This document shows, piece after piece, positions 9,964 through 35,513 of a DNA stretch of 64,000 nucleotides. How positions within the stretch are numbered: the stretch's first letter is position 1; each line of letters opens with the position of its first letter. The stretch is from an uncultured virus (IMG/VR IMGVR_UViG_3300021138_000005) (lineage: Duplodnaviria; Heunggongvirae; Uroviricota; Caudoviricetes). A program made the translations under genes and the position numbers. Under the pieces are notes generated by a model. That model did no database searches, was not told the origin of the DNA, and was given only the letters and a program-made list of their open reading frames with translations. The stretch is from the IMG/VR virus record IMGVR_UViG_3300021138_000005; one strand, 5' to 3'.

Positions 9964-10983
9964 ATGGCAAAAGACATAGACTTTTCAAAGACAGTGTACT
10001 TTACCGACATTCATTATGGTCTCCGCAACAACAGCAGAGAACACAATGCCAGCTGTGAGCAGTTCATCGAATGGATGATTGAGCAAGCCGAGGAATGGGG
10101 CAGCAAGAACTGCATCTTCGGCGGCGATTGGCATCATAATCGCAGCGTGATCAACGTGAGCACGCTCAATTACTCAGTGAGCGGACTCAAGAAGCTCAAT
10201 GCATATTTTGACAATGTGTTCTTCTTGCTGGGCAATCACGATCTGTTCTACAGGGACAAGTATGAGATCCACAGCATACCTTACATCAAAGAATTCCCTA
10301 ACATCCATTTGATCGAGACACAGCAAGTGTTTGATGGCGTTAGCTTCGTTCCTTGGATGGTTGGCGATGATTGGAAGTCAGTTCCAGCAATCAAGGCACC
10401 TTACTTGTTTGGACACTTCGAGCTGCCTCGGTTCAAGATGAACGCTATGGTAGAGATGCCCGACCACGGATTGCTAAACGAAACTCACTTTGCCAATCAA
10501 CAGCAAGTATTCACCGGACATTTCCACAAGCGCCAGAATCGCAACAAGATATGGTATACCGGAAACTGTTTCCCTCATGATTATTCAGATGCCTGGGATG
10601 ATAATCGCGGTATCATGCTCTGGGAACCAGGTAATGATCCGATATTTCGTGCATGGCCGGGCGCTCCAAAATATCGTGTAGCCCCGCTAAGCAAGGTATT
10701 AGAGGATCCAGAAGCAGTGATTGACCACAAGACCTATGCTCGCATCGCAGTTGACCTTGATATTAGCTACGAAGAAGCCAACTTCCTCAAGGAACTGTTT
10801 GAGCGCGAGCTTGACGCTCGAGAAGTCAACCTACAGGTTGCTAAAGCAGATGCACAGGGTGCCATACCAGAAGATGGTATCAACTTTGAAAGCGTGGACA
10901 CCATCGTGATCAGCCACCTACAGAGCATAGAATCCAACACCATAGATCGGCAGCAGTTGATCCAGATCTATCAGAGCATATAA
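9964..10983 (+). CDS. Recombination endonuclease subunit gp47 (Mre11/SbcD-like)
   Basis: Metallophosphoesterase motifs DIH, GDWHH, GNHD, GHFH. Confidence 0.92.
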   Translation: MAKDIDFSKTVYFTDIHYGLRNNSREHNASCEQFIEWMIEQAEEWGSKNCIFGGDWHHNRSVINVSTLNYSVSGLKKLNAYFDNVFFLLGNHDLFYRDKYEIHSIPYIKEFPNIHLIETQQVFDGVSFVPWMVGDDWKSVPAIKAPYLFGHFELPRFKMNAMVEMPDHGLLNETHFANQQQVFTGHFHKRQNRNKIWYTGNCFPHDYSDAWDDNRGIMLWEPGNDPIFRAWPGAPKYRVAPLSKVLEDPEAVIDHKTYARIAVDLDISYEEANFLKELFERELDAREVNLQVAKADAQGAIPEDGINFESVDTIVISHLQSIESNTIDRQQLIQIYQSI

Positions 10984-10985
10984 GC

Positions 10986-12770
10986 ATGTTGAAACTGAAA
11001 AGCGTGAGCCTCAAGAACTTCTTATCTGTCGGTGCTGTCACGCAAGCTGTGGATCTGGATCGCAACGGACTCACGCTGGTACTGGGTGATAATCTGGATC
11101 TGGGAGGCAATGGTTCGCGCAACGGTGTGGGCAAGAGCACCATACTACAAGCCATCAGCTATGGACTGTACGGCGAGGCGCTGACCAACATCAAGCGCGA
11201 TAACCTAGTAAACAAGATCAACGGCAAGAACATGGCTGTGAGCATCGAGTTTGAGCTCAATGGCCATGTACATCGTATTGAACGAGGTCGTAAGCCGCAG
11301 TTCTTCCGCTGGATGGTTGACGACGAGAGCAAGGTTGGCGAAGAAGCCACAGATGAAGCACAGGGCGATGCTCGCGATAGCCAAAAGGACATCGTCAAGC
11401 TCATAGGCATGAGCCACACGCTATTCAAACATATCGTAGCGCTCAACACCTACACAGAGCCATTCTTGGCCATGGGTGCTGCTAAACAGCGAGAGATTAT
11501 TGAAGAACTGCTGGGCATCACTCTGCTGAGCCAGAAAGCTGAGAATCTCAAAGAACTGATCAAGAACACAAAAACTGATATTGAGCAGGAAGAGTTCCGC
11601 ATACGCACTGTGAAAACAGCTAACGAGAAGATAGCCAAGACTATCGAGGATCTACAGAACAAGATCAACACCTGGGATGCTAAGAATCTACAAGAGATAG
11701 CTACTCTGGAAGCTGCTATCGAACAGCTTGAGCTACTGGACATTGAAGCCGAGTTAGATAACCACAAGTTGGTGGAAACACACAGGGAACTAGGCAAGGC
11801 ACTCACACAGCTGCGCAAGGATCACGTGACCAAGAACAAGCACGCAACGCAGCTAGAGACGCAGCTGAACAATCTGCTTAGCCAGTTTGAAAGAGCCAGC
11901 GTGCACAAGCAATGCCCCATGTGCGAACAGCAGATCAAAGATCACAAGCACGATGACATCATCGGTGATCTCGAGAGCAAGATTGCCATGTTGGATCAAC
12001 AGGTCAATGCCGAACGGCAAGAAATCAGCGAGCTAGAATCACAGATAGCAGAGATTGAACCCGTTTATACTGCAATGGGCACGCCAAAAACGTTCTATCC
12101 CACGCTGCGCGAAGCAGTCAATCATAAGAGCACTGTGGAATCTCTGCACAAGGATCTGGTCAAGGAACGTGCTGCTGAGAATCCCTATTTGGATCAAGCG
12201 GACAGCTTACAGAGCACTGTGCAGGAAGTCAGCTATGATCAGCTCAACGGATTGGTCAAGAGCCGAGAACATCAAGAATTCTTGCTCAAACTGCTGACCA
12301 ACAAGGACAGCTTCATACGCAAGCGCATCATTGATCAGAATCTGGCTTACTTGAACAGCAGATTGAATGATTATCTGGACAAGCTTGGCCTACCTCACAG
12401 CGTGAAGTTCCTCAACGATCTCACCACAGAGATCAGCTTGCTGGGGCAGGATCTGGATTTTGACAATCTATCACGCGGCGAACGCACACGTCTCATCCTT
12501 GGATTGAGCTGGAGCTTCCGTGACATATTTGAAAACATGAACCAAGCTATCAACCTGTTGTTCGTTGATGAATTGCTAGACAGCGGACTTGATCCTGCTG
12601 GTCTCGAAGGATCAGTTGCTGTGCTCAAGCGCATGGAACGCGAACGTGGCAAGAACGTGTTTGTGATATCTCACAGAGAAGAGCTCATAACCCGCGTCAG
12701 CAACGTGCTGAGCGTGATTAAAGAAGGTGGATTTACTACCTTCAGCTATGAACACGAGATAATTACCTGA
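10986..12770 (+). CDS. Recombination ATPase subunit gp46 (Rad50/SbcC-like)
   Basis: Walker A NGVGKS, coiled coil with CPMC zinc hook, LSRGE signature, Walker B LLFVDE, ISH. Confidence 0.93.
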   Translation: MLKLKSVSLKNFLSVGAVTQAVDLDRNGLTLVLGDNLDLGGNGSRNGVGKSTILQAISYGLYGEALTNIKRDNLVNKINGKNMAVSIEFELNGHVHRIERGRKPQFFRWMVDDESKVGEEATDEAQGDARDSQKDIVKLIGMSHTLFKHIVALNTYTEPFLAMGAAKQREIIEELLGITLLSQKAENLKELIKNTKTDIEQEEFRIRTVKTANEKIAKTIEDLQNKINTWDAKNLQEIATLEAAIEQLELLDIEAELDNHKLVETHRELGKALTQLRKDHVTKNKHATQLETQLNNLLSQFERASVHKQCPMCEQQIKDHKHDDIIGDLESKIAMLDQQVNAERQEISELESQIAEIEPVYTAMGTPKTFYPTLREAVNHKSTVESLHKDLVKERAAENPYLDQADSLQSTVQEVSYDQLNGLVKSREHQEFLLKLLTNKDSFIRKRIIDQNLAYLNSRLNDYLDKLGLPHSVKFLNDLTTEISLLGQDLDFDNLSRGERTRLILGLSWSFRDIFENMNQAINLLFVDELLDSGLDPAGLEGSVAVLKRMERERGKNVFVISHREELITRVSNVLSVIKEGGFTTFSYEHEIIT

Positions 12771-13375
12771 TGGCGGTTAATGGGAAATCTAAAGGATCGG
12801 CCTTCGAACGCAAGATAGCCAACAGGCTGTCTGCAAGGTTTGAAGTCTCTCTGGGAATCAAAAATTCCTTTAGAAGGAACCCTGATTCCGGGTCATTCTT
12901 CGGCGGCAGCAACAAATCACGCACAGAGAGCTACAGCTTAGATTATGCGATTTTCGGAGATCTTATCTGTCCTCGCAATTTCACATACAGTGTGGAGTGC
13001 AAACACTATAAGTCACCACCCAGCTTCCAAAGCGTGCTCAATCACACGGTTACGCAATGGGATGGTTGGCTTGCACAGGCAGAACAAGATGCTGCTAGCA
13101 GCAACAAGCAAATGGTGCTGATAATCAAGTACAACAACGTGGATATCATGGTGTTCCTCAAAACACCGATATCTGGTAAGTATCATAACAGATACAAAGA
13201 CTTCTACATACATTTGCTAGACGACTGGCTGGCTCAATCAGATGACCATTTCTTGTCATCGAAGTTGACAGCTGACACCACTGAACACAATGCTATAACA
13301 GTAACGGAGACAGACAATGGCAGCCAAGAAAGCAGCAGCGAAGAAGACCAAAGTAACGGATTCCAGCCAAGCTGA
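12770..13375 (+). CDS. Holliday junction resolvase-like PD-(D/E)xK nuclease
   Basis: KSKGSAFERKIA...GDLI...VECK pattern. Confidence 0.75.
   Translation: MAVNGKSKGSAFERKIANRLSARFEVSLGIKNSFRRNPDSGSFFGGSNKSRTESYSLDYAIFGDLICPRNFTYSVECKHYKSPPSFQSVLNHTVTQWDGWLAQAEQDAASSNKQMVLIIKYNNVDIMVFLKTPISGKYHNRYKDFYIHLLDDWLAQSDDHFLSSKLTADTTEHNAITVTETDNGSQESSSEEDQSNGFQPS
13272..13299 (+). promoter_or_regulatory. Sigma70-type promoter for the 13317 gene and downstream structured element
   Basis: CTGACA-N16-TATAAC with TGn extended -10 (TTGACA also at 13265); GGAG SD before ATG 13317. Confidence 0.5.
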
Positions 13376-13670
13376 CAAGCCTTGGTTCCCAGCAGATGCT
13401 AAACCAGCAACTGCTGCCACTGAACCAGCAAAGAAAATGAGTCCATGGCAGCGTCGTGCTGCTCCGGTAAACTATGGTACGCTGGCCAAGCCAGGTATCA
13501 GTTTGAGAGAAGTATTCAATCTACACATAGAAGAAAAGCACAAGAAATTGTCCGAAACACAGCGTGATGCGGTGTGGAAGGTCGTTGGCACAAAGTTATT
13601 ATCAGAACCCCTAAGCAAGCTCAAAGAAATCACTGACGCAGAAGTCAAGGCTCACGCAGGCTCCAAGTAA
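13317..13670 (+). CDS. Small basic hypothetical protein (Lys/Ala-rich N-terminus)
   Basis: 117-aa ORF with SD; begins MAAKKAAAKKTK. Confidence 0.7.
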   Translation: MAAKKAAAKKTKVTDSSQADKPWFPADAKPATAATEPAKKMSPWQRRAAPVNYGTLAKPGISLREVFNLHIEEKHKKLSETQRDAVWKVVGTKLLSEPLSKLKEITDAEVKAHAGSK

Positions 13671-13699
13671 GCTCAAGTTCTTACTCGCTTTCTAATCTA

Positions 13700-14155
13700 C
13701 ATATTGGCTCAATAATGGTGATGTGATCACCCGGTGAAAGGATACATTACAGTGTATCACACTCACCGGATGGGGATTCTATCTGCTAGGCCCCTGCCAA
13801 ATAAATCAGAAAAAAGATCACAGCCGCCGTGTGACTGGCCAGCTGTGATGCAAGATGTGTCTCGCCGTTTGACTGTCTTGTAGCTTGGGTAACTCCCATA
13901 ACCGAGTATAGAGGTAGAGATACCTCTGAGAGATGATATCTGTATGTTGGAATTTAGGTACTCCGCCAACTGTCGAAAGACAAGGATAAAAGGGCAATGG
14001 TGTCGTTCGAACCAGAATGATATTTCACATGGTCACTCCCTGGGTAAGGGAGTGATATGGCTGCTAATCGACCAGAATAACTAAAACAGAATTATTAAAG
14101 AGAAGATGTTAGATGAGCTTTAGCTCAGCTAACTGATGAGCGTAAGCTCATCACT
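13700..14155 (+). ncRNA. Candidate highly structured non-coding RNA, family not recognised
   Basis: ~490-bp gap without a credible ORF, filled with about ten stem-loops, three capped by GNRA tetraloops on the + strand (GAGA 13917-20, GAAA 13975-78, GTAA 14142-45). Confidence 0.6.
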
Positions 14156-14161
14156 GATACC

Positions 14162-14350
14162 TTAGAGTTGTTGTTTCTTGTTAGGATTTTGTGAATCATA
14201 GTGCTGTTGGATTATATTAACCATCTTGCGTCTCTGATCTAGAGTAAGCAACCAAGCATCATCGTAATCTAATCCACCATTCATGTGGAACACCAATGAA
14301 TTTACATCGCTTTCGATTGCGTCCACGTTTCTTCTCATCACATCTAACAT
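14162..14350 (-). CDS. gp51-like baseplate/tail assembly chaperone C-terminal ORF (probably reached by -1 frameshift)
   Basis: Small ORF after the gp26-like gene; no SD; its frame is open back to the slippery site at 14398-14392. Confidence 0.6.
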   Translation of the reverse strand: MLDVMRRNVDAIESDVNSLVFHMNGGLDYDDAWLLTLDQRRKMVNIIQQHYDSQNPNKKQQL

Positions 14351-14379
14351 TGAAGTAATGAGGTCAGAGTCCCCGGTGG

Positions 14380-15234
14380 CTATAGCCGAGTGAAAAAAAG
14401 CGCTGGATCAAACTGCAGCTTTTCTGTCCAAGTCTTGCCACAATTAACGCATTGTGCATCAGTTTCTTTTGGTGGACCAACTTGATTGAGCGTGTTTACA
14501 GCTTCGATCACAGCATCAGCTGTGCTTTTTGGTATGTTGGTAAGCCATTCTGCGATATGATCTTTGTCAGTAACAGTTAACTGTTCTGCACCTAGCATCT
14601 CTATGGCAGTGATGCTGTTAGCTACTAATCTAAATGTTAGATGCGTGAGCTTTTCAATGCTGCGTGCTAGCAGATCAGCCCTCTGCATATCGTCAATGAT
14701 GTTTTCATCTTTTTCAATGGCTGATAGTGTACGCTGTTCTTCCATCTGTTTCTGTATCAGTATGGTTCGCATCTCGAAATCATAGGGGCGAATGTGCACA
14801 CGTAAATCACTGTCTATCATGACTGTGGTATCACTATCGTCTATATAAGTCATGTTATCTAACAGATGATTGCATTGTACTTCGAAATTGTTTTCATGAC
14901 CACAGGCTTCGCACTTGCGTTCTATCTCAAACTTACCATTGTTGGTTGCAGCCTTAATACCTAGGAATATAGCATCTAGATCTGGTTGAAGCACTCTTTT
15001 CACATCTTTGACGTCTGGTACACAGCTCTGTATCACGCTTTCAAGTGCATGGCCATTCAGCAGCGCATCTGGTGTGTTAAGCATGATGTCATCAATGGCA
15101 TTTAGACCATATATGCAAACCTCTTGGTTATCATTGACGTTTACTGAGCCATCTTCATACCATCTCCCGCCTGTTGGCAGTCGTATCCAGAGAGCAGGAC
15201 GTCTGAAATGCTTCTGTAATGGATTATTAACCAT
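14380..15234 (-). CDS. Baseplate hub assembly protein, gp26-like
   Basis: NPLQKHFRRP...LPTGG start, TPDALLNG, two CxxC motifs, ends ...FF; divergent from the tape measure gene. Confidence 0.75.
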   Translation of the reverse strand: MVNNPLQKHFRRPALWIRLPTGGRWYEDGSVNVNDNQEVCIYGLNAIDDIMLNTPDALLNGHALESVIQSCVPDVKDVKRVLQPDLDAIFLGIKAATNNGKFEIERKCEACGHENNFEVQCNHLLDNMTYIDDSDTTVMIDSDLRVHIRPYDFEMRTILIQKQMEEQRTLSAIEKDENIIDDMQRADLLARSIEKLTHLTFRLVANSITAIEMLGAEQLTVTDKDHIAEWLTNIPKSTADAVIEAVNTLNQVGPPKETDAQCVNCGKTWTEKLQFDPALFFTRL

Positions 15235-19162: not shown

Positions 19163-19170
19163 TATAAATA
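19163..19170 (+). promoter_or_regulatory. Late promoter TATAAATA for the portal gene
   Basis: Perfect T4 late consensus 25 nt before the ATG. Confidence 0.75.
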
Positions 19171-19195
19171 TCCGATCAAATGAGGCGAATACCAC

Positions 19196-28283: not shown

Positions 28284-28371
28284 TATGTTGGTTGAATTAA
28301 GCAATGCTATAGATATTGCCGCGTTATAATGATTTAGTGTACTATAAATATCAATATGATTGGGGCAAGTG

Positions 28372-35454: not shown

Positions 35455-35513
35455 GATGTTTCCTTGCTAATGATATTTATTGGTGGTTTATAAATATCTC
35501 AGAGGTATCTAGC

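Follow-up and report, generated by a model that had tools for sequence, protein, structure and literature searches.

A probable new class of conserved, doubly pseudoknotted noncoding RNA in huge freshwater phages

What lies between the genes at positions 13671–14161 of a 64,000-nucleotide (nt) stretch of DNA from an uncultured virus (IMG/VR record IMGVR_UViG_3300021138_000005; the whole stretch is called the window here)? This 491-nt gap falls within the longest part of the window free of open reading frames (ORFs) of at least 100 amino acids (aa) (13671–14379), and the next internal one measures 263 nt. A first-pass annotation, made from the letters of the window, had picked it out as the largest gap and had proposed that positions 13700–14155 hold either a large folded RNA of an uncatalogued class, read from the + strand, or a structured replication origin. 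We find the first proposal well supported, by strong covariation among 34 homologues together with the lack of an Rfam match and of a coding signal, and we consider 13700–14155 very probably a real, structured noncoding RNA (ncRNA) of the + strand whose class is absent from Rfam. The novelty is at the level of RNA class, and the claim does not extend to function.

All 12 of the stems listed in that annotation are present exactly where it placed them (12/12). The + strand of the gap folds at −159 kcal/mol (z-score −4.32) and the − strand at −161.6 kcal/mol (z-score −7.05), and for each strand none of 100 dinucleotide shuffles folded as well (0/100). As both strands beat their shuffles, single-sequence folding shows dense self-complementarity and does not pick the strand.

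Homologues were collected in two ways. Twenty related loci were fetched via the gp51 protein encoded beside the gap, and blastn finds the gap sequence in 16 of them. Element identity is 91% in L005 (over 620 nt), 82% in L001–L004 and 76% in L006, L008 and L009, above the identity of the gp51 protein at the same loci (71%, 76% and 64%, in the same order), which is higher than expected of noncoding DNA. Two invariant motifs were also used as patterns against public collections, and an nhmmer profile then sorted true homologues from chance matches. Homologues are present in at least 98 loci (98/267 fetched, the metagenome part being among the matches listed), comprising 18/20 gp51 loci, 19/19 and 33/36 viral pattern matches, and 28/120 metagenome pattern matches among the matches listed. 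Every homologue is on a viral or metagenome contig, and not one of 72 motif-matching stretches from bacterial or archaeal genome contigs is a true homologue (0/72). The two gp51 loci without a homologue are L007, which ends before the element, and L020, which has no RNA. Collapsed to distinct sequences, and with the window included, the family has 40 members.

A search of 43 sources with R1, a covariance model of the core (114 positions), detected the element in all but L020 and two cultured-phage regions (40/43), and five large records carry one strong copy apiece. When R1 was used to filter a broader pattern scan, 17 of 80 loci checked gave matches, among them L297 and L337, a third RNA subtype with an R1 score of 41.6 bits. 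No match was found by blastn of four family members in 50,697 GenBank phage records, and neither nhmmer nor R1 finds anything in Pseudomonas phage PA5oct or in Atu_ph07, in the syntenic regions or in the whole genomes (best E 0.83).

Comparative covariation is the decisive support for the reality of the observation. We aligned 34 distinct sequences with MAFFT (alignment A2, 52% mean column identity, fitted to no structure), leaving out 6 of the 40: the truncated L100, L175 and L187 and the partly alignable L017–L019. RNAalifold predicts 45 pairs on A2, 33 of them with compensatory changes. A model of 18 helices and 104 pairs was drawn from the window sequence and then counted on A2, where 85.5% of 3428 cells are paired, as compared to 35.5–48.1% when the 3′ partners are slid by 1–3 columns. 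Changes on both sides occur in 72/104 pairs (36–45 when slid), and the covariation score is 0.342 (0.090–0.111 when slid), a value that 0/500 shuffles reach. Across five measures the observed values were reached by 0/500 shuffles for four and by 5/500 for the fifth; these are related sequences, so the shuffle controls overstate significance, and we rely on the slid-partner control as the fairer one. In alignment A6, made with the core model R1, 90.2% of cells are paired (37–58% slid), a figure that leans towards the model by construction. The model is weakest at P1, where no pair changes on both sides, at P5, where one does, and at P9, which is misaligned in two subgroups.

The core of the RNA has a conserved, compact, doubly pseudoknotted fold (Table 1). 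Pseudoknot 1 (PK1) was found blind, as a six-pair helix with the third-highest score in a scan of all A2 column pairs for stacked covarying pairs, which otherwise recovered helices already in the model. It is paired in 97.1% of cells (28–60% when slid), with 39 double-change cells. Its three central pairs swap among G-C, A-U, U-A and C-G in 8, 14 and 17 of the 34 sequences with zero unpaired cells, and in the divergent copies L271 and L297 the helix is preserved by further spellings. The blind scan also gave a high score to a strand swap between P3 and P6a, which is broken in L161 and L164 and which we rejected as a by-product of similar stems in close relatives. A further suggestion of the scan, that the 5′ arms of P8 and P13 pair with each other, conflicts with two well-supported helices.

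Pseudoknot 2 (PK2) joins the P7 loop to the strand after P10. These two are complementary in every subgroup, with nine spellings of 5–9 base pairs (bp), several of them perfect, and the window register (13864–13870 with 13989–13995) has six pairs and a G-G mismatch. A pseudoknot of this loop had been suggested before, between 13863–13869 and 13996–14002. The P7 loop does pair downstream of P12, but the family-wide partner is offset by about 7 nt from the one suggested. The suggested register has seven pairs including two G-U and can form in the window's subgroup alone; it fails in the L006 and L023 groups, and in the other subgroups the P7 loop pairs with the strand just upstream, at 13989–13995. 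Variation within the window's subgroup does not choose between the two registers. PK1 is nested within PK2.

The first-pass annotation had noted that G-U pairs and GNRA loops fit the + strand, and the alignment bears this out. Among the modelled pairs there are 205 G-U as compared to 121 A-C, or 182 and 73 without P5 and P9, which MAFFT misaligned. The ratios in the cleanest helices are 40 to 1 (P7a), 28 to 6 (P6b) and 14 to 3 (P1). A single P7a pair (columns 207–250) is G-U in 29/34 sequences and a single PK1 pair is U-G in 28/34, and both become A-C mismatches if read on the − strand. GNRA tetraloops occur on the + strand only, in P9 (GAGA), P12 (GAAA), P15 (GUAA) and, by reading, P13 in 28/34 sequences. 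The pair counts and the loops point to + as the probable functional strand.

Open frames on the other strand could be taken for a protein-coding gene. The − strand is poor in stops, with ORFs of 59–138 codons in the window and several relatives, and the core of 34/34 homologues has stop-free runs of 50–118 codons, mostly on the − strand. However, substitutions against relatives are flat over the codon positions (3/5/4, 10/11/9, 14/18/14 and 27/26/26; five relatives compared), several 1-nt insertions or deletions fall inside the − strand ORFs between close relatives, and the longest open frame differs from homologue to homologue. These patterns of change appear to refute a − strand gene to our satisfaction, and we give that reading virtually no credence. 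A mini-ORF from the P1 AUG was also rejected, its frame and length not being conserved among homologues (by reading of tail segments).

The same asymmetry bears on the proposal of a structured replication origin, which is not supported: conservation is strand-asymmetric, the two pseudoknots are of RNA type, the site has no skew inflection and a second copy is present at an unrelated locus. More broadly, a DNA-level element such as an origin, a packaging site or a recombination hotspot, with inverted repeats forming cruciforms, would suit a site that adjoins the recombination genes gp46/gp47 and a resolvase-like nuclease, whose two strands both fold far better than shuffles, and that has four ARGCUCM copies clustered just upstream (13617–13675). 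A DNA duplex or cruciform would not tolerate such an excess of G-U over A-C, though, nor would it account for loop-to-strand pseudoknots that covary. The genes converge on the element rather than diverge from it, and the upstream ARGCUCM motif is not enriched window-wide (28 found, 34.7 expected), a count on which we also rejected the cluster as a general promoter. We regard a DNA-level element as highly improbable.

The second copy is in a different gene context. Record G005 (309,756 bp), one of the five large records, has a strong RNA copy and, 294 kb away, a divergent one (L271:1878–2240), which scores 32.7 bits with R1, aligns to positions 10–471 of the full-length profile and retains the whole architecture bar P14 and P15. 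On one side it is flanked by a spanin gene and a weak holin-like ORF, on the other by a 375-aa gene, and a NUDIX/cytidylyltransferase gene is nearby; the subtype of this copy is also present in another contig (L295). In L016 the ORF on the 5′ side of the RNA is on the opposite strand, and ARAGORN finds no tRNA genes in 19 homologue loci. The other gene context, the neighbour on the opposite strand and the absence of nearby tRNA genes argue against a cis element of the recombination or baseplate operons and for an RNA gene whose product would act in trans.

A cis-acting role would follow if the element were no separate RNA gene but the folded 3′ untranslated part of the operon transcribed rightward (gp47, gp46, the resolvase-like PDDEXK gene and a 117-aa gene), stopping transcription at the convergent junction or shielding the mRNA from 3′ exonucleases. 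The RNA directly follows a co-oriented ORF in the window and most loci, no promoter was found for it, it sits where two transcription directions converge, and P14 and P15 are at its very end, 9 nt from the stop of a − strand 62-aa gene. Yet a stabilizer or terminator would need far less than some 360 nt, two pseudoknots and dozens of unpaired bases that do not vary, and P15 is without a U tract. The core is kept in L271, where P14 and P15 are missing and the flanking genes differ, and in L016 with the 5′-side ORF on the other strand. We therefore hold a 3′ untranslated end to be unlikely.

Several observations weigh against a + strand RNA gene with the fold proposed here, apart from the overstated shuffle significance. 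The − strand has the better folding z-score. The closing helix P1 has no compensatory change, only one-sided ones (C-G to U-G and U-A to U-G), and its fourth pair is unpaired in 8/34 sequences. A crude self-versus-cross test of PK2 is weakly discriminating (6.97 and 5.93 bp) because the subgroups share letters. We found no sigma-70-type or T4-late-type promoter upstream of the RNA and no intrinsic terminator on the + strand in 13200–14500 (two − strand matches fall inside P6), so the RNA could be the processed 3′ end of the upstream operon. The 20 listed sequencing runs that contain the stretch (14 studies) include none recorded as RNA. Two runs labelled metatranscriptomic were judged 'probably DNA', and their contigs, low-depth pieces of relatives over 13370–14135 and 12923–14061, are evidence neither way. 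Finally, the P5 loop failed as a partner of the repeated motif described below, and it was the sole candidate checked.

We searched for known families in the window and in the homologues. Rfam 15 (4227 models) gives no match at the gathering threshold in the whole 64-kb window, as the earlier annotation had proposed to check. At E up to 10 the region 13500–14400 matches just snoR9 (13.3 bits, cut-off 90) and U6 (12.3 bits, cut-off 44), both by chance, and the 36,331 bases of 15 divergent homologue loci contain no matches at E up to 1. By ARAGORN the window has no tRNA or transfer-messenger RNA (tmRNA) genes. These searches agree with the earlier statement that tRNA, tmRNA, RNase P and group I/II motifs are missing. 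Rfam 15 includes GOLLD, ROOL, OLE, raiA, HEARO, RNase P, tmRNA, group I and II introns and the hammerhead. No description of the RNA appears in the titles and abstracts of full-text search results or in passages from the main part of one 2026 preprint.

Rfam models might be too narrow to catch a very diverged RNA from one of the large ribozyme classes already known, RNase P RNA or a group I-like ribozyme for example. The new RNA resembles RNase P RNA and group I introns in its comparable size, closing terminal helix, multi-helix junctions, GNRA loops, long-range pseudoknots that lock the core and invariant unpaired nucleotides, and a few short strings are like conserved RNase P strings, a lead and no test. 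RNase P RNA has a universal catalytic core in which the long-range helix P4 joins conserved regions, and group I introns have an interleaved P3/P7 pseudoknot. The helix order of the new RNA and the nesting of PK1 within PK2 do not seem to map onto either family, and no Rfam family, RNase P included, reaches E = 1 in the window region or the 15 divergent homologue loci (for RNase P, no model match even at E up to 10 in the window region). The RNase P-like string in the P8 loop varies freely between subgroups. Group I and II intron models do not match either, and the element interrupts no gene, the upstream ORF stopping at 13670 and the next gene (14162–14350) being on the opposite strand. A diverged known ribozyme is very unlikely in our estimate.

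The hammerhead has an unpaired CUGAUGA core followed by GAAA after stem II. CUGAUGA occurs at 14133–14139, but 14134–14139 is the covarying 5′ arm of P15, no GAAA follows the hairpin and Rfam gives no match. As in structured ncRNAs in general, compensatory changes keep the helices of the new RNA and G-U is tolerated on one strand. By the features checked for each, it does not belong to any Rfam family, lacks the tRNA adjacency of GOLLD and ROOL, and is not an RNase P RNA, an intron, a tmRNA, a hammerhead, a terminator or a coding gene.

The closest RNAs in kind are the large 'ornate' phage-associated RNAs GOLLD and ROOL. They too are large, elaborate noncoding RNAs with covariation support and no assigned function, and they come mostly from the DNA of uncultured phages of lakes or metagenomes. 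They are larger than the approximately 360–450 nt of the new RNA and are often adjacent to tRNA genes in phage DNA, whereas no tRNA genes are near the new RNA in the window and 19 homologue loci; it also matches neither Rfam model. GOLLD and ROOL are reported to form RNA-only multimers, as seen by cryo-electron microscopy (10.1101/2024.12.08.627333).

Two other systems offer partial parallels. The phi29 packaging RNA (pRNA) is about 170 nt long, multimerizes by loop-loop contacts on the packaging motor, is known only from phi29-like phages and is part of the phage machinery rather than a regulator. The new RNA is likewise phage-encoded and structured and adjoins baseplate genes, but it has no Rfam similarity to pRNA and nothing found here ties it to virions. 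ColE1 RNA II, a structured replication pre-primer, is also a transcript of several hundred nt, and folding could matter at a replication or recombination locus; here, however, we saw no antisense partner, origin signature or skew change, and one genome has a second copy elsewhere.

The RNA carries a repeated motif. The earlier annotation had noticed that ACCAGAAT recurs, and we find it at 14011–14018 and 14071–14078. It is part of a twin motif of 11–12 nt that occurs twice in every homologue, in or around the P12a loop and in the single-stranded tail after P1, the copies differing by one inserted base. Both copies change together in three lineages: CGA(A)CCAGAAU in the window, CU(C)AUCAGAAK in L012 and CUA(U)ACGAAA in L045. 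The concerted change implies a shared partner, and that partner is the main unexplained feature of the RNA. Kissing between the P5 loop and the twin motif was rejected, the best helix having a mean of 4.8 bp as compared to 4.5 for shuffled loops, with other loops doing as well. A pairing of the L012-type motif with the P15 5′ arm was rejected too, being complementary in that subgroup alone; the window-type motif differs while P15 is unchanged.

We propose that transcription of the + strand, started at a promoter of the RNA itself or reading through from the upstream operon with later processing, would yield the RNA, which would then act in trans. Its core of about 360 nt begins with a 5′ four-way-junction domain (P2–P5) followed by hairpins P6 and P7. 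A central body is clamped by PK1 (the strand after P8 with the P11 loop) and PK2 (the P7 loop with the strand after P10), and P12a and P13 lead to the single-stranded tail and then, in most subgroups, to P14 and P15. The rigid double-pseudoknot body could serve as a pre-organized platform, with the twin motif binding a single partner in two copies; that partner could be a dimeric protein or else a nucleic acid. Given that the RNA is real, a partner-binding platform or ribonucleoprotein is our tentative best guess for its mode of action. A ribozyme is possible and appreciably less likely, something else slightly less so, and an RNA-only multimer of the GOLLD/ROOL type the least likely of the four. 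It is possible, if doubtful, that the RNA founds a new catalytic or self-assembling class, in which the double-pseudoknot core would be the active site or building block and the twin motif would provide substrate- or guide-like strands or contacts that assemble copies of the RNA into an RNA-only particle. If self-assembly were true, nearly every member of a clade of freshwater phages of 300–520 kb would make such a particle during infection.

To our knowledge, few large (>300 nt) and intricately folded RNAs are known from bacteria and phages: RNase P, group I and II introns, OLE, GOLLD, ROOL and raiA. Each has opened a line of work. The comparative support for the new RNA, with two covarying pseudoknots, is unusually clean. 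It is kept in 18/20 related loci, occurs in some cases in two copies and changes more slowly than the structural protein encoded next to it, and by this pattern of conservation it is very likely important to a whole clade of uncultured huge phages. The twin co-evolving motif is a concrete handle for finding the partner, and the RNA is a ready target for in vitro transcription, chemical probing and cryo-electron microscopy.

Table 1. Features of the RNA and its 5′ flank in the window (double changes are changes on both sides of a pair, counted on A2 unless A6 is named; for P10–P12, on A2 and A6).
Feature	Position	Strand	Details
Flanking hairpin, outside core	13666–13685	+	Spans the stop codon of the 117-aa gene; AGUAAG / CUUACU
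Core RNA, ~360 nt	13700–14059	+	5′ to 3′ arm of P1; in every full-length homologue; spanned by nhmmer and covariance-model matches
P1, tentative closing helix (4 bp, added here)	13700–13703 CAUA / 14056–14059 UAUG	+	89.7% of cells paired
P2	13704–13708 / 13796–13800	+	Closes four-way junction with P3, P4, P5; double changes in 4/5 pairs
P3	13717–13731	+	Double changes in 4/6 pairs
P4	13732–13768	+	Double changes in 8/13 pairs; conserved internal loop GUGAAAGGAUA ... UAUCANACUCAC, invariant in alignment A1
P5 (gggg/cccc)	13772–13794	+	Double change in 1/4 pairs; 77.9% of cells paired
J2/6, A-rich single-stranded linker AUAAAUCAGAAAAAAG	13801–13816	+	AAAGGAU run into P6 nearly invariant
P6 hairpin	P6a 13817–13824 / 13842–13849; P6b 13826–13829 / 13836–13839	+	Double changes in 11/12 pairs; conserved loop GUGUGAC
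P7 hairpin	P7a 13850–13855 / 13876–13881; P7b 13859–13861 / 13871–13873	+	Double changes in 9/9 pairs
PK2 5′ strand GCCGUUU, P7 loop	13864–13870	+	Pairs with 13989–13995 AAAGGGC directly 3′ of P10
P8 hairpin UGGG/CCCA	13886–13898	+	Followed by invariant AUAACC; double changes in 3/4 pairs (A2), 4/4 (A6)
PK1 5′ strand GAGUAU	13904–13909	+	Pairs with 13958–13963 GUACUC in P11 loop
P9 hairpin, GAGA loop	13910–13927	+	Followed by invariant GAG; double changes in 5/7 pairs (A2), 4/4 (A6)
P10	13937–13940 / 13985–13988	+	Encloses P11 and P12; 97% paired; double changes in 3/4 pairs
P11	13946–13950 / 13966–13970	+	100% paired; double changes in 2/5 pairs; loop with invariant GGAA..UAGG...UCCGCC
P12, GAAA loop	13971–13982	+	Double changes in 3/4 pairs
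P12a hairpin	13999–14008 / 14015–14024	+	Twin-motif copy 1 (ACCAGAAU, 14011–14018) in or around loop
P13 hairpin, 9 bp	14033–14055	+	Invariant CUCCC...GGGAG; double changes in 4/9 pairs; 87% of cells paired
Single-stranded 3′ tail	14060–14108	+	Twin-motif copy 2 (AUCGACCAGAAU, 14067–14078)
P14	14109–14118 / 14123–14132	+	Double changes in 9/10 pairs
P15, GUAA loop	14134–14141 / 14146–14153	+	Double changes in 6/8 pairs

Helices P6b, P7b, P8, P10 and P12a, the tentative P1 and the two covarying pseudoknots are additions to the structure described in the first-pass annotation, and many unpaired nucleotides of the RNA are invariant among homologues. P9 is paired in 63% of cells in A2 and 69.5% in A6, the low value in A2 arising because MAFFT misaligns two subgroups. 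For P12a, a hairpin enclosing the motif is predicted, with different stem sequences, in 16 of 21 homologues folded. Most subgroups have P14 and P15, but the second copy L271 and the L045 group lack them, and there is no U tract after them. GAUGAGC occurs in the 5′ arms of both P14 (14112–14118) and P15 (14135–14141), and the P14 copy might instead pair with the 3′ arm of P15. The string AACUGAUGRGC hardly varies between subgroups though it lies in a stem, and is more conserved than a plain hairpin needs.

The RNA locus lies in a T4-like module of a very large phage. The + strand encodes an Mre11-like phosphoesterase (9964–10983) and a Rad50/gp46-like ATPase (10986–12770), followed by a PDDEXK/RusA-like, resolvase-like nuclease (12770–13375) and the 117-aa ORF (13317–13670), which has its own stop at 13670. 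The converging − strand genes are the 62-aa ORF (14162–14350) and a T4 gp51-type baseplate protein (14380–15234). The gp46 homologue is at most 46% identical to that of PA5oct. The relatives come from IMG/VR and metagenomes, as contigs whose length reaches 518,643 bp; one contig has direct terminal repeats and two are classed as 100% complete, and the carriers of the RNA form a clade of huge freshwater phages distantly related to PA5oct. DNA runs that contain the stretch are labelled freshwater, lake, aquatic or just 'metagenome'.

As listed, the 117-aa ORF starts inside the resolvase-like gene and shares the last 59 nt of that gene (13317–13375). An AlphaFold model of its protein (predicted local distance difference test score 71) has a disordered basic first half and a three-helix bundle; the protein has no Pfam or PHROG family, and Foldseek against the PDB gives nothing at E up to 0.001. 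As a partner of the RNA it is unsupported: L016 has no ORF of that size upstream of the RNA, and the second copy instead has the weak holin-like ORF upstream. The 62-aa ORF encodes a real, well-conserved small protein that carries the motif MNGGLDYNDAWLLT..QR in 12/12 aligned loci and belongs to no Pfam or PHROG family. In all cases the ORF comes after the gp51 baseplate gene, and L020, which lacks the RNA, has it too. That locus, the most distant of the gp51 set, has in place of the RNA a 1.6-kb gap (L020:4080–5685) with 32% G+C and a 248-aa ORF; nhmmer gives just one weak match there, with the 3′ portion of the RNA profile.

T4-type late-promoter-like motifs (TATAAATA) are found before several structural genes (approximately 19165–19180, 28340–28355, 35490–35505 and 59465–59480), none of them before the RNA; such motifs fit the presence of a gp55-type late sigma factor in relatives. 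In some subgroups an nAGACT-like hexamer, loosely conserved, stands 6–9 nt before the 5′ end of the RNA and was unconvincing as a promoter.

The four ARGCTCM copies (AAGCTCA, AGGCTCA, AGGCTCC and AAGCTCA, 13617–13675) occupy the last 55 nt of the 117-aa ORF and run across its stop. Relatives have 2–5 copies upstream of the RNA at variable distances. The reading frames of the copies differ in L012 and L026 (by reading), and ARGCTCM looks like a DNA- or RNA-level motif. The 5′ end of the RNA itself reads UGGCUCA. The arms of the hairpin that spans the stop codon change in step by eye (AGCAAG/CUUGCU in L022 and GGUUAC/GUAACC in L001), and this hairpin may mark where the upstream transcript ends, or it may be processed to release the 5′ end of the RNA. 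In L297 the 5′ flank of the RNA is a tandem repeat of about 22 nt (2.5 copies, L297:268–325), the last copy running into the 5′ end of the RNA, and these repeats could be reiterated start or processing signals.

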